From a virus (lineage: Duplodnaviria > Heunggongvirae > Uroviricota > Caudoviricetes): DNA of 44,565 bases. The notes beneath the pieces were generated by a model. That model ran no database searches. It saw nothing but the letters and a program-made list of their open reading frames with translations, and had not been told where the DNA came from. The stretch lies in the IMG/VR virus record IMGVR_UViG_2639762822_000001. One strand, given 5' to 3'. Shown here in pieces: positions 4,531-34,732 of the stretch. The translations under genes were made by a program, and so were the position numbers. Every line of letters begins with the position of its first letter. Positions within the stretch are counted from its first letter, which is position 1.

Positions 4531-4550
4531 GTAGATAACTACTTACCTAC
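4531..4550 (-). promoter_or_regulatory. Motif A before decoration gene
   Basis: GTAGATAACTACTTACCTAC; -10-like TACTGT. Confidence 0.6.
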
Positions 4551-13570: not shown

Positions 13571-15130
13571 ATGACAGTTCGTATTGTATCGAATGCCGTC
13601 AATGCACTTATTTCGGGTGCAGATGACAATGTAAAAAGGCTCGTTCAGGAAATGTTGAGCTACGAGGTGGAGGCTGGCGACTGGAAAGGCACCAGCACGA
13701 TGTTCAACTGGAGCAAGAATGCGTTCCCGGCCGGCTTTGCCAAGCCAGTGGCAGCCAACCTTCTCAAAGCGGGCATCAAATGCGTCCACGTTCGTAAGGA
13801 TAAAGCGCCGCCGCTTGGCAAGCCTAATCCAGTCGTTAATCCGTTTCCGTACAACCCTGACTATGCCTATCAAGATCAGACTGTCGAAACGCTCGTTCGC
13901 GAGGGGATGATGATCGCGCAAATTGCGACAGGGGGCGGGAAGTCTAACGTAGCGTGTAAAGCAGCAGCACGTATTGGGCGAATGACGTTGTTTTTAACCA
14001 CGCGTTCTGTTTTGATGTTCCAGATGGCTGAAAATTTCCAAAAATCTATCGATTATCGAGCTGAAAACGGAGAACCGTGGCTTAAAGGCCAGAAGGTGGG
14101 CGTAATAGGATCTGGTCAGTCTCAGGTTTCACGCCATATCAACGTCGCAACGGTGCAAACCCTGGCCAGCTTCCTTGAAGAACCGCCACGCGATGCTTCA
14201 CCGGAAAAGAGGAATCACCACCTTAGACGTCAGGGGCTTGTTAAGCGATTCCTATCCAGCGTTTCCCTCCTGATTCTGGAAGAAGCCCACGAATCATCAG
14301 GCTCCAATTTCTACGATATAGCGCGGTTATGCATTAATGCTGATTATCGATTGGCTCTGACAGCTACACCGTTTATGAAGGATTCGACGGAAGCGAACAT
14401 GCGTCTCATGGCAGTAGCCGGGCGAATTGAGATCAAAGTCACCGAAAAATACTTGATCGACCGAGGTATTTTAGCAAGGCCCTACTTTCTTTATCATAAG
14501 ATCTCGTACACTCCGGATGAGGTACGAATCCGGGCCGAACTTGCTTCAAAACATCTCAATTTCAGGGTCGGAATGAGCACTGCGTATCAGAAAGCCTATC
14601 AATTAGGTATTGTCTACAATCTGGCTCGCAACGAAGCCATTGTGCGTGAGGCGCTCATGTACAAAAGCCACGGCCTGAACTGTATGACACTGGTGCGTCT
14701 GAAAAGGCATGGACAGATCCTGATGGAAATGATGAGAGAGAGCGGCCTTAACGTCGACTTTATCTATGGGGAGTCAAATCAGTCTACCCGGCAAGCCAAA
14801 CTGAGCAGCTTAGCGGCAGGCAAGATAGACGTTTTGATTGGCTCAACCATACTGGATGTAGGCGTCGATGTTCCTAGCGTCGGCGCGGTAATTCTGGGTG
14901 GTGGAGGAAAGGCCGAAGTTGAAATGCGTCAGCGCGTAGGACGTGGCCTTCGAGCCAAGAAAAATCAGGCGAATGTGTGTTTTGTTACCGACTTCATCGA
15001 TGTAAGCAACAAGTATCTCATGTCGCACTCATATGAACGGAAAAACATCATCGACACTACGCCTGGGTTTGCCGAGGGCGTATTGCCAGTGGGTAGCACC
15101 TTCGATTTTACTGTTTTAAATAGAGAGTAA
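13571..15130 (+). CDS. SF2 DNA helicase (UvsW/D10-like)
   Basis: Motif I 'ATGGGKS', motif II variant 'LEEAH', motif III 'TAT', 'LDVGVDVP', motif VI 'QRVGRGLR'. Confidence 0.9.
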   Translation: MTVRIVSNAVNALISGADDNVKRLVQEMLSYEVEAGDWKGTSTMFNWSKNAFPAGFAKPVAANLLKAGIKCVHVRKDKAPPLGKPNPVVNPFPYNPDYAYQDQTVETLVREGMMIAQIATGGGKSNVACKAAARIGRMTLFLTTRSVLMFQMAENFQKSIDYRAENGEPWLKGQKVGVIGSGQSQVSRHINVATVQTLASFLEEPPRDASPEKRNHHLRRQGLVKRFLSSVSLLILEEAHESSGSNFYDIARLCINADYRLALTATPFMKDSTEANMRLMAVAGRIEIKVTEKYLIDRGILARPYFLYHKISYTPDEVRIRAELASKHLNFRVGMSTAYQKAYQLGIVYNLARNEAIVREALMYKSHGLNCMTLVRLKRHGQILMEMMRESGLNVDFIYGESNQSTRQAKLSSLAAGKIDVLIGSTILDVGVDVPSVGAVILGGGGKAEVEMRQRVGRGLRAKKNQANVCFVTDFIDVSNKYLMSHSYERKNIIDTTPGFAEGVLPVGSTFDFTVLNRE

Positions 15131-30197: not shown

Positions 30198-30767
30198 TCA
30201 ATGATGTAAAGGCTGCATCTTTTGCGGCTGTTTATTCAGATCGTGGCGATGGGTCAGCTCGCGCATCATGTCTTCAAGACGGCTCTTGGTGTCGTCAAGC
30301 TGGTCGGCCATTGCCCCCAGCAGCTGGCGAACGGCCATCGGATCGTCGCTGTTCAGCTCAGGCATTTTGAACCCAGTCTGGGAAGACATAAGTTTGAACG
30401 CGGCCATTAACATCGCCAGAGAAGACTTCAGCCCTGCGATTTCACGATCTTTGCTGGCGCTCTTTTCATCTACGTTGACTGAATCCGGTGAGCACTTCGG
30501 CTTGCTTACCATTTCCAGCGTTGCCTGCAACTTGTCTGCACGATCTTTTTCCGTGAGGTAGTGAACGCCCAGATGGTGTGCGAAACCGACGATCTGCATC
30601 GGGTCTTCAAAAAGGGAAGCAAATTCAACAACAGCCATCAGTCGCCCGGGTACGGACGATTGTTCAGTGCCGCGCACAATACCCAGCATTTTGACCAACT
30701 CAACGACATCCATCTCTTCGAATTTTGCATTCTGTTCTGCGGCTTTAGCTTTGCAATTCTGGCACAT
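30198..30767 (-). CDS. Hypothetical coiled-coil protein
   Basis: 189 aa, TAAGGA RBS, motif-B operator upstream. Confidence 0.7.
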   Translation of the reverse strand: MCQNCKAKAAEQNAKFEEMDVVELVKMLGIVRGTEQSSVPGRLMAVVEFASLFEDPMQIVGFAHHLGVHYLTEKDRADKLQATLEMVSKPKCSPDSVNVDEKSASKDREIAGLKSSLAMLMAAFKLMSSQTGFKMPELNSDDPMAVRQLLGAMADQLDDTKSRLEDMMRELTHRHDLNKQPQKMQPLHH

Positions 30768-32505: not shown

Positions 32506-32525
32506 ATAGGTAAATACTTACTTAT
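32506..32525 (-). promoter_or_regulatory. Motif A
   Basis: ATAGGTAAATACTTACTTAT; -10-like TATTAT. Confidence 0.7.
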
Positions 32526-33126
32526 CATTTTGTGACAAAAAACCAATGTCACGCTTGTGAGGCATATCCGCTGCGGTGTGGGCCGCGATCTTCGCCAGAC
32601 GGTCACACATTTCGTTTTCGCGATGACCCGCATGGCCTTTAACCCACTTCCAGCGAACGTTGTGGCGGCTGGCGGCCGCGTCGAGACGTTTCCAGAGATC
32701 GACATTTTTGACTGGCTTCTTCTCGGACGTGATCCATCCGTTACGCTTCCAGCCTTTCATCCAGAGCGTCATGCCGTTTTTGAGATACTGGCTGTCTGAA
32801 TGCAGGATCACGTTGCAGGAGTACTTCAGACGCTCCAGCGCAATCAGGGCGCCCATCATCTCCATACGATTGTTGGTCGTGCTGTGGAAGCCCTCAGAAA
32901 GCTCACGCTCTTCACCTCGATACTGGAGAACGATGCCGTAACCGCCCGGTCCGCCCGGATTTTTGAGGCAAGAGCCATCACTGAACACTTTTACGGTTTT
33001 GAGCTGGGGATTGAACTCTACTACGGGGGTTTTGAAGCTGGTACGGGAATGGTGGTGGGTTTGCTGTCTGGCTTTGGACTTCGGCCGGCAGCCAGTTTGT
33101 TGTCGGGCTGGGGTTTTAGTTGTCAT
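32518..33126 (-). CDS. rnhA: Ribonuclease HI with ~35-aa basic N-terminal extension
   Basis: '[14 protein letters not shown]', 'TTNNRMEM', 'SDSQY', 'VKNVDLW', '[15 protein letters not shown]'; GGAG RBS. Confidence 0.95.
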
Positions 33127-33234
33127 TTTGACTCCAGAATCGCGCGCCGCGACGATTTTTTCCCTCGCGCGTGTGCGCACGCGTGTGTTTAAATTTTTAA
33201 AATTTCTTATGAAAGAAAAACTTACTTCCCAGAA

Positions 33235-33670
33235 CAGGTTTTAATAAAACCTGAACTGAACGAACGAAGTGAGTGAAGTTCACCTCGAACGAAGTGAGAG
33301 GTTGTCTTTTCAGGTAATATCTTCCCAGGGAGGTGAGTACAGATCCTCACCAGCCTGGTCGTTACATAACCTGAAAAGTTATGGCCTAAGTCTACTGCCA
33401 GCTTAGGCTTGGGAAGTTATGGATGACAGCACCCCAGAACCGAGATCTTCCCACATTCTATGAAGGGGAGCTGGGAACACAACCTCTCGAAATCCCAGAC
33501 TCGACAATCATAGAATGACCCTTATCTCTGCTCACTTTGGTTCCCCCTTCCCCAACACCTAAACGGTGCCGGTTCTACGCTGGTAGTGAGCTTTTTAAAC
33601 CTGACGCCAGTGACACAATCCCCCACCCATCAGGCCGAGCTTCCGGAGGTTCCGGAAGCATGGGGATATT
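33235..33670. ncRNA. Highly structured non-coding region (candidate ncRNA or R-loop origin)
   Basis: No ORF of 60 aa or more; at least 7 perfect helices of 6-10 bp, including long-range pairings; C-tracts on the plus strand. Confidence 0.5.
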
Positions 33671-33693
33671 AACACTGGAATCCATGGTTTAAA

Positions 33694-33713
33694 ATAGGTA
33701 AGCAATTACCTAT
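33694..33713. promoter_or_regulatory. Motif A upstream of structured region
   Basis: ATAGGTAAGCAATTACCTAT. Confidence 0.7.
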
Positions 33714-33943
33714 AACGTAGTTTGATTATTTTGTCGCCCATGTAGTTGGGTGTTCAGAGCGAAAACCTCGTTAACAAGCTCTCCAAGCAACTGCTCGATC
33801 AAATCTTTATGCTCGCCGGCGTGCAGACATTTCATTGCCCATTCATACAAGCTGAACGCCTGTTCGCGAGTTTTCATCATCTCGCGAGCTTTGGCCAGAA
33901 AATCGCTCTCAACAAGCGCTACGACGTTCGTCGGGTATACCAT
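33710..33943 (-). CDS. Hypothetical protein
   Basis: Start MVYPTN with TAAGGA RBS; 77 aa. Confidence 0.7.
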   Translation of the reverse strand: MVYPTNVVALVESDFLAKAREMMKTREQAFSLYEWAMKCLHAGEHKDLIEQLLGELVNEVFALNTQLHGRQNNQTTL

Positions 33944-34059
33944 GATGTTTTCCTTACTGTGTTTCATAAAAACGATTCTAAAGCGTCTGGAGCGGGGTTC
34001 CAGAGAGTTAAAGCGGTTAGAATCGGTCTGGGATGTCTACAGAACTACGTTTTGGTAGA

Positions 34060-34138: not shown

Positions 34139-34732
34139 TTAAGCTGCCTTTTTAGGTGGTCTTTTCTTCCTGATTACAGTGGAAGGATCATAGCCACCCA
34201 GCTTTTTCATTACCGTCAGCGGTACCTTGCTGATCGTGTGTCCAGCATCCTGACAATGCCCACGAAAGATGACCAGCATACTGCCACCTGGATTGATATT
34301 GACCTCCACCAGCCCAAGCTCAACGTCCGGCTCGATGAACGCTACGCGCCCCCCGGAGAGTATAACTGTTTCGTTGGCGCATTCCGCGGCACGCTCATAC
34401 CATTTCGTATCCAGGGATTGTGGTATCAATATGACTGTCGTTACGCCCCGCGCCTGCTCTCGAATGGCCGCATCGATCCACGGCGTTATTTTTGAATAGG
34501 GTGGATTTAGGAACGCCACTGTGCCCGGGTTGCCCCATTCGCACGTTAAAGCATCACGCTCAACGCCGATAAAGGTTGGTAGCAGTGCATTTTCTTTATT
34601 GCAGGCGACGTCGACATCGAACTTAACGCCTATGTATCTTTGAATGGCGACAAATAGCCACTGGGGTGTGCGCCAAAGGTCACGAAGGGAGGTGTCACGC
34701 TCTCTTTTTTTGATTTTTTCCGCTGCGATCAT
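34139..34732 (-). CDS. Phage Dam-family DNA N6-adenine methyltransferase
   Basis: 'DLWRTP', 'FDVDVAC...NA', 'FLNPPYS'. Confidence 0.85.
   Translation of the reverse strand: MIAAEKIKKRERDTSLRDLWRTPQWLFVAIQRYIGVKFDVDVACNKENALLPTFIGVERDALTCEWGNPGTVAFLNPPYSKITPWIDAAIREQARGVTTVILIPQSLDTKWYERAAECANETVILSGGRVAFIEPDVELGLVEVNINPGGSMLVIFRGHCQDAGHTISKVPLTVMKKLGGYDPSTVIRKKRPPKKAA

Follow-up and report, generated by a model that had tools for sequence, protein, structure and literature searches.

What does a phage-plasmid encode in a long gap that holds no protein gene? The question is raised by the IMG/VR virus record IMGVR_UViG_2639762822_000001, an SSU5/pHCM2-type phage-plasmid of which a stretch of 44,565 nucleotides (nt), here called the window, was analysed. 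The gap in question (33181-33713) lies directly upstream of the phage ribonuclease HI (RNase HI) gene, rnhA. It contains no open reading frame (ORF) of at least 60 amino acids (aa), the longest being 51, 45 and 42 aa, and a spurious 93-aa plus-strand ORF (32963-33244) extends 64 nt into it. A preliminary description of the sequence had already noted the lack of ORFs and had proposed either a lytic origin that uses a phage transcript as primer, with maturation by the adjacent RNase HI, or an undescribed large non-coding RNA. Conservation above that of the flanking genes, compensatory changes, a predicted promoter and predicted ends all favour the second proposal. The gap is very probably a discrete gene for a structured non-coding RNA of ~445 nt, located on the minus strand at 33215-33659. 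Regarding its function, we give a probability of about 0.5 to a stand-alone RNA that acts in trans, either by binding protein or by assembling with itself.

The first line of evidence is conservation. The gap matches Salmonella phage SSU5 at 86%, as well as 11 other enterobacterial phage records, and an alignment running from the upstream 85-aa gene through rnhA was built from 54 distinct homologues from IMG/VR contigs and SSU5. Within it, the majority base in the core of the gap (33248-33637) reaches a frequency of 0.95-0.998 per 30-nt bin, compared with 0.82-0.93 in the flanking genes, while the spacers on either side (33188-33217 and 33638-33697) fall to 0.63-0.69. The adjacent 280-aa protein shares just 53-70% identity in most relatives. 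Since the core is more conserved than the genes that flank it, selection acts on the gap's own nucleotide sequence.

The second line of evidence is structure. The dense folding reported in the preliminary description is borne out on both strands: the minimum free energy of the minus strand is -207.5 kcal/mol, against -155.6 +/- 6.3 for dinucleotide shuffles (z -8.3), and that of the plus strand is -183.5 kcal/mol (z -7.0). The additional 24 kcal/mol of stability in the minus strand points to G.U pairs, and hence to that strand as the functional one. Covariation, which had been suggested as a check, is present among the homologues. RNAalifold predicted 131 pairs from 22 representatives, with a compensatory double change in 15 of them, and across 47 distinct sequences there are 14 double-change pairs distributed over eight helices, with 99-100% of cells canonical. 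Read in the minus sense, these 47 sequences contain 667 G.U cells and four A.C cells, and nearly all one-sided changes in pairs are to G.U. This asymmetry is not expected from a plus-strand RNA or from a DNA cruciform. Mutual information between variable columns followed lineages only. The clearest covariation is found in the hairpin at 33639-33659, at the base of 33598-33636, in the pair 33589/33532, in the helix 33454-63/33508-17 and in the hairpin at 33384-33408. Overall, the fold of the RNA is under selection, and this selection acts on the minus strand.

The RNA matches no catalogued family. A search of the whole window against Rfam 15 (4227 covariance models) returned nothing at gathering thresholds, and with permissive filters the best hits had E values of 2.5-9.7 and scores of 12-17 bits, against thresholds of 30-80. 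The window contains no transfer RNA (tRNA) or transfer-messenger RNA genes, and a literature search found no paper on this RNA.

Where would such a transcript begin and end? A sigma-70 promoter is predicted on the minus strand at 33666-33694, comprising a -35 element TTTTAA (33689-33694; weak in this window), a TG dinucleotide (33673-33674) and a -10 element TAATAT (33666-33671). Within TG-n-TAnnAT (33674-33666), a T and one A are invariant in 53 sequences and the remaining positions are at least 90% conserved, while neighbouring bases vary freely. Similarly, a TTnAnn -35 element, 17 nt from the -10, is conserved amid variable flanks, and in the SSU5-type homologue L003 a promoter scan calls TTTAAA-17-TAAAAT with an upstream TG. 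The promoter lies just past a palindrome at the junction with the upstream gene. Seven bases downstream of the -10 is the invariant G33659, the foot of the covarying 5' hairpin and the predicted start. The 3' end is predicted to fall in a U-tract, UUUUUCUUUC (33211-33220, minus strand), which directly follows the closing stem of the last domain to form a branched, terminator-like end; this region is U-rich in six of seven lineage groups, as distinguished by eye. On the opposite strand no conserved promoter was found. The sole plus-strand promoter-like site (33487-33516) lies within a covarying helix, its -10 reads TAAAGT in most relatives, and L003 has none.

Parts of the stretch also occur in 12 runs labelled as RNA, and contigs from four of these were compared. 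In three assemblies the contigs are 1.5-43 kb long and span neighbouring genes, which may reflect DNA carry-over. The fourth (one study, assembled contigs only, and not counted as evidence of expression or of transcript ends) has short contigs over 33228-33647 and little on rnhA.

The predicted fold can be followed from 5' to 3' along the minus strand, with the helices numbered P1 to P9. Helix P1 (33639-33659) is the 5'-terminal hairpin, in which the sequence is free and the pairing is kept, with three double-change pairs and the compensatory forms GCUUCCGGA/UCCGGAAGC, GCUGGCAGA/UCUGCCAGC and GAUUUCGA/UCGAAAUC. P2 (33598-33636) is a long hairpin that carries the first G-tract (GGGUGGGGG, 33621-33629) and likewise has three double-change pairs, with no broken pair in the helix. 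In the P3 domain (33530-33591), the pair 33589/33532 changes from UA to CG in seven of 22 sequences, an inner hairpin (33552-33572) has one double change, and the second G-tract (GGGGAAGGGGG, 33543-33553) sits in a loop. P4 (33454-33517) consists of the 10-base-pair (bp) helix 33454-63/33508-17, which changes from CAUUCUAUG/CAUAGAAUG to CACUUUAUG/CAUAAAGUG in other lineages with U.G intermediates, and of an apical extension that displays the invariant loop UUUCGAGAGGUUG. The apical stem below the GAGAGGUUG loop has two alternative forms; the loop is invariant.

P5 (33410-33453) is invariant, and its stem UGGGAAG/CUUCCCA encloses the unpaired, invariant AUCUCGGUUCUG (containing the palindrome AGAUCU) and a small hairpin. 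It is followed by the P6 hairpin (33384-33408), with three double-change pairs, and by P7 (33307-33377), the helix 33306-15/33369-78, whose invariant stems enclose the nested CCAGG..GGUGAG/CUCACC..CCUGG hairpin with a loop of varying length. The 3' end is a three-way junction (33221-33299), recurring in all lineages examined, which is closed by the stem CU.CACUUC/GAAGU.AG. Its two arms are P8 (33262-33290), built from one copy of a 13-nt direct repeat (CUCACUUCGUUCG, at 33261 and 33286), and P9 (33229-33259), with one double change from UA to GC.

Most of these elements had been listed in the preliminary description and were found as described: the perfect 10-bp helix 33296-305/33479-88, the helices 33306-15/33369-78, 33325-37/33346-58, 33384-90/33402-08, 33454-63/33508-17 and 33639-47/33651-59, the minus-strand G-tracts at 33621-29 and 33543-53, the direct repeat, the hairpin palindrome at 33235-53, the AT-rich stretch and the junction palindrome (33695-33712) that it called motif A. 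Covariation proves the helices 33639/33651, 33454/33508 and 33384/33402 and the base of 33598-33636; the others are invariant, and are neither proven nor refuted. A further helix, 33618-23/33662-67, is present in this window only and extends partly beyond the predicted start on its upstream side; it is probably a chance pairing.

The helix 33296-305/33479-88 crosses P4 and had been read as a pseudoknot or a conformational switch. Its strand ACAACCUCUC (33296-33305) has two mutually exclusive partners, both invariant: the P4 apical loop GAGAGGUUGU (33479-33488), which would give the 10-bp pseudoknot, and GAGA..GGU at 33518-33528, which would give a nested closure of the core. The candidate pseudoknot strands are GAGAGGUUG (33480-33488) and CAACCUCUC (33296-33304), and one lineage has a C-to-U change in this helix that retains a G.U pair in the pseudoknot version. 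With invariant arms and an alternative partner, the pseudoknot is plausible and unproven. Other pairings compete as well. UGGGAAG(A/U) occurs three times in the RNA (33410-33453, 33312-33321 and 33221-33232) and its complement ACUUCCCA once, all invariant, and an invariant repeat, CUCACUUCG, flanks the partner AGGUGA on both sides. Such alternative pairings may constitute a switch.

How widespread is this RNA, and is it tied to the gene behind it? Matches were found in 687 plasmids from Klebsiella, Escherichia, Enterobacter, Salmonella, Citrobacter, Cronobacter and other genera. Of these plasmids, 677 are predicted to be non-mobilizable, and the matches listed are plasmids of ~100-140 kb or cointegrates. 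One is a Salmonella plasmid of 106,516 bp, which is the length of Typhi pHCM2. The RNA is also present in 232 of 5,426 complete E. coli genomes, and none of the 12 records listed among the 233 matching E. coli records has a RefSeq annotation under the match.

In several relatives, the RNA persists where rnhA is truncated or displaced. For example, in L073 and L076 a two-gene insert (222 aa and 315 aa) replaces rnhA codons ~14-96, which cuts the gene to residues 97-197 and leaves the RNA intact. In an Enterobacter plasmid (L180), the intact RNA is followed by betT and a DUF2254 gene in the same orientation, and in ~79 of 712 plasmid records the match is split right past the RNA. Inserted genes of the same orientation are concentrated immediately beyond the RNA, at the 5' end of rnhA. 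The RNA is kept more strictly than the phage RNase HI, for which the host RNase HI could substitute.

Further afield, Pseudomonas (nickie) and Rhizobium (RHph_X66) phages share the order of the exonuclease and 280-aa genes, with the genes tightly packed and no gap, rnhA or RNA homologue. A core covariance model of the RNA (type 1, model R1) and an nhmmer profile likewise found nothing in these relatives, upstream of distant rnhA genes, or in the type-2 loci described below. Two individual relatives deserve mention. In Buttiauxella gaviniae (L082:4792-5352), unrelated sequence takes the place of the promoter and of the first third of the RNA, and homology begins at the equivalent of ~33537. In SSU5, the deposited 765-nt rnhA coding sequence (SSU5_090; L001:2419-3183) starts at a GTG in the P8 hairpin; because this frame is closed in the window, the annotation is probably over-extended by ~50 codons.

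A second RNA in the same position adds to the argument. The 280-aa protein, used as a marker, occurs in 724 plasmids, and its counts per genus equal those of the RNA except in Klebsiella (340 vs 310) and Moellerella (3 vs 0). In 30 Klebsiella plasmids the slot holds a different non-coding element of ~430-500 nt (type 2; L174:10677-11259, L175:2501-3150, L176:2501-3072 and L177:2501-3090), located past the palindrome of a 74-aa ORF homologous to the 85-aa one. This element has a fold z of -4.75 and 15 double-change pairs among four sequences, read in the gene sense. It also has a -35/-10 pair that overlaps the palindrome, a hairpin at the 5' end, and a further hairpin with U8 after it. Two of the three type-2 lineages keep rnhA after the element; in the third, an opposite-strand gene replaces it. 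No relationship to type 1 was detected: nhmmer gave E >1, the core covariance model did not match, and the two have no invariant 8-mer in common. The type-2 plasmids examined belong to rep_cluster_2469 or rep_cluster_711, and the three type-1 plasmids examined are IncFIB. The three Moellerella plasmids have the marker protein and match neither RNA type, and may hold a third occupant of the slot.

A slot that is kept while its occupant can be replaced suggests that an RNA function is needed there, provided by lineage-specific versions. More tentatively, at a little short of an even chance, SSU5/pHCM2-type phage-plasmids reserve this slot for a large structured RNA central to their biology, of at least two unrelated classes (~690 and 30 plasmids). 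The RNA would then represent a new functional class. It could work as an RNA-protein machine or by self-assembly, controlling the choice between plasmid and phage lifestyle or commandeering a conserved host machine, or it could be a lineage-specific primer of a second, lytic origin.

If the RNA does act in trans, the following sequence of events can be proposed. The extended -10 promoter would start the RNA at G33659. The fold, as the sequence comparison shows, consists of a protective 5' hairpin, two 5' domains with drifting sequence and preserved pairing, a near-invariant core of several helices and ~250 nt, and the 3' three-way junction. Transcription would end at least partly at the U-tract, with some read-through probably feeding rnhA. 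The released, stable RNA would then hold or guide a conserved host or phage protein or machine, or assemble with itself.

Several points weigh against this proposal. The near-invariance of the core over ~250 nt exceeds what the fold alone needs, and no protein or nucleic-acid partner was found. A simple terminator scan did not call the 3' end, which has no canonical terminator, and neither this window nor L003 has a promoter-like site in the interval separating the RNA from rnhA. Together, these two results make read-through into rnhA likely, and because rnhA lacks a promoter-like site of its own the RNA could be a processed or unprocessed leader of the rnhA transcript. Expression, ends and strand are also predictions from sequence.

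The search for partners covered both the element and a host. Short-word BLAST of the RNA against the window gave matches of at most 12 nt, at chance level; complementary seeds of 6-8 nt may be present. Against a plasmid-bearing Kluyvera genome it gave only matches of 15-17 nt (E 0.6-7). The best of these, in yacL, was rejected as a target, being in the same sense as the RNA and so not complementary. A duplex between the 3' domain and a 189-aa ORF (30325-30396; -63.5 kcal/mol, the best of 797 windows) was also set aside as a partial inverted look-alike limited to this and close lineages; elsewhere it decays with the coding sequence while the RNA is invariant.

Of the other explanations, a cis-acting leader survives best, and we regard it as unlikely. 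Here the RNA would be the 5' leader of the transcript of rnhA and of any inserted genes, working by attenuation or by stabilising the message, and perhaps cut off as a stable by-product. The absence of a promoter-like site before rnhA fits this explanation, as do the branched rather than canonical 3' end, the shared orientation of the genes inserted behind the RNA and the mutually exclusive pairings (three copies of UGGGAAG for one ACUUCCCA, and CUCACUUCG on both sides of AGGUGA). The unrelated Klebsiella RNA also lies directly before rnhA in two of three lineages. However, conservation is lowest and length most variable in the spacer from the RNA to the ribosome-binding site of rnhA, where kilobase inserts are tolerated, and the RNA is invariant even where rnhA has been destroyed. 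In addition, 445 nt with an ultraconserved core is far beyond what known attenuators need, and no conserved complementarity to downstream messages was found.

The RNA-primed origin is more doubtful still. It supposes that the transcript remains hybridised to its template near the AT-rich stretch as an R-loop, is cut by RNase HI and primes lytic DNA synthesis, as ColE1 RNA II does. The locus has features that would suit this. On the RNA-like strand there are G-runs in the first 120 nt, and AT-rich sequence lies immediately beyond the 3' end. The next gene encodes RNase HI and is surrounded by a DNA-metabolism module (ribonucleotide reductase, thymidylate synthase, 3'-5' exonuclease and Dam), and the RNA is like RNA II in size and foldedness. 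Two unrelated RNAs in the slot before rnhA would suit lineage-specific origins, and a double constraint, from RNA fold and DNA sites, could explain the extreme conservation.

Nevertheless, apart from adjacency and G-tracts, no positive evidence for the lytic origin of the preliminary description emerged. The RNA is unchanged where rnhA is truncated or displaced, and a slot RNA is kept in the Klebsiella lineage that lacks rnhA, a point tempered by possible substitution by the host enzyme. There is no conserved antisense promoter and no similarity to ColE1-type replicons, plasmid matches being of the SSU5 type only. The G-tracts belong to conserved helices and loops of the RNA, the 3' end is a structured junction with a U-run, and the Pseudomonas and Rhizobium relatives have the same gene order without the RNA. 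Cumulative GC skew shows no inflection in the window, a weak indicator dominated by gene direction.

The remaining two explanations, even when combined, have little chance of being correct. A DNA-level element with an incidental fold, whether a site for recombination or protein binding or a homogenised recombination anchor, might account for 250 nt nearly invariant across hosts, for the two copies of CUCACUUCGUUCG and for the junctions of inserted genes just downstream; it is very improbable, given that the compensatory double changes and the excess of G.U over A.C mark selection on a minus-strand RNA rather than on duplex DNA. Encoded small proteins are the least credible option: two plus-strand ORFs, of 31 aa and 45 aa, are retained in 48 and 41, respectively, of the 64 variants, but persistence is expected in invariant sequence, no ORF of at least 25 aa and similar length occurs in all 64, there is no start context, and the loops carry indels of 1, 2 and 3 nt, which speaks against coding.

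The genomic setting can be described briefly. The genes around the gap all lie on the minus strand and encode ribonucleotide reductase subunits, a MazG-like pyrophosphohydrolase, thymidylate synthase, a DnaQ-like exonuclease, the 280-aa protein of no known family, a Dam methyltransferase (34139-34732), the 85-aa ORF, also of no known family (33710-33967), and RNase HI. The last, rnhA (32518-33126, minus strand; PF00075, E 1.2e-45), has a basic and variable N-terminal tail, an ATG at 33124-33126 and a Shine-Dalgarno GGAG at 33132-33135. In SSU5, an antirepressor gene (ant) lies three genes downstream of the RNA; this window has a TerB-like gene in its place.

Between the RNA and rnhA are two further features. 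The AT-rich spacer (33188-33210) is the least conserved part of the region, with a majority-base frequency of 0.63 and 21% gaps. Next to it lies an alternating purine-pyrimidine 20-mer, CACACGCGTGCGCACACGCG (33168-33187), which occurs once in the window, has a conservation of 0.93 and marks the point downstream of which the inserted genes of relatives start. This 20-mer and a GC hairpin at 33140-33152 give terminator-like scores on the plus strand, facing against the direction of the genes.

At the other end of the gap, the junction palindrome TAGGTAAGCAATTACCTA (33695-33712) begins with TAG, the stop codon of the 85-aa ORF. The palindrome has 13 sites in the window against 0.74 expected. The 18-nt sites are at 1205, 4532, 7976, 13507, 27878, 32507, 33695, 34074, 34745, 39588 and 44346. 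Most copies of the palindrome, TAGGTAAGTACTTACCTA, start at or a few bases past the stop codon of the upstream gene, and those at 4532 and 44346 are followed, ahead of the next start codon, by a canonical hairpin with a U-run. Such a position may be as suitable for a hairpin in transcript 3'-end formation or processing as it is for an operator.

Phage-plasmids of this type are common in clinical Enterobacteriaceae, and their ~445-nt RNA surpasses all the neighbouring protein genes in conservation and belongs to no catalogued family. The proposals made here are testable in culturable phages such as SSU5 and Cyrano and in laboratory lysogens of E. coli, with the type-2 RNA offering a natural swap. 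If the origin explanation proved true, tailed phage-plasmids would have their first known example of a ColE1-like primer origin. Uncatalogued, highly conserved RNAs have led to new biology before, as with 6S and OLE, and GOLLD and ROOL are still being worked out.

How does this RNA compare with known systems? As predicted, it resembles ColE1 RNA II, a folded transcript of ~450-550 nt that is made from its own promoter, contains G-runs, is followed by A/T-rich sequence and has a link to RNase HI, which here is one of adjacency. Unlike RNA II, it has no antisense RNA I promoter, no similarity to ColE1-type plasmids and a structured 3' end with a U-run, it is kept without an intact phage rnhA, and its element has a separate replicon (IncFIB in type-1 relatives). 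In the T4 oriF/oriG R-loop origins a DNA-unwinding element closely follows the promoter, and the helicase UvsW takes the R-loop away. Here the AT-rich stretch lies ~440 nt from the start, behind a folded RNA. Moreover, the helicase in the window (13571-15130) that the preliminary description called UvsW-like is a superfamily 2 helicase whose nearest solved structure is XPB/Rad25 (E 7e-13), with UvsW matching at 1.7e-6 over the C-terminal domain only.

Leader-derived RNAs of phages P1, P4 and N15 work as cis leaders that are later cut off. The present RNA is like P1/P7 c4, P4 CI and N15 CA in occupying the 5' part of an operon with a promoter beside a dispersed palindrome, but those RNAs are ~70-100 nt long and pair with nearby targets, whereas this one is ~445 nt long and no conserved complementary site was found for it. 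GOLLD and ROOL are large RNAs of phages and prophages that were recognised by covariation and whose function is not established. They share with it a length of several hundred nt, many helices and carriage by phages. The present RNA differs in matching no Rfam model, in being found in phage-plasmids of Enterobacteriaceae rather than in Firmicutes, in having no tRNA genes nearby and in its far higher invariance. Finally, it differs from 6S RNA and the protein-sequestering RNAs of the CsrB type in that it has no Rfam match, is multi-branched rather than a long bubble-hairpin, and has its GGA motifs mostly in stems. What it would have in common with them is the mode of action considered most likely here, that of a stable, trans-acting RNA whose conservation reflects a conserved protein partner.

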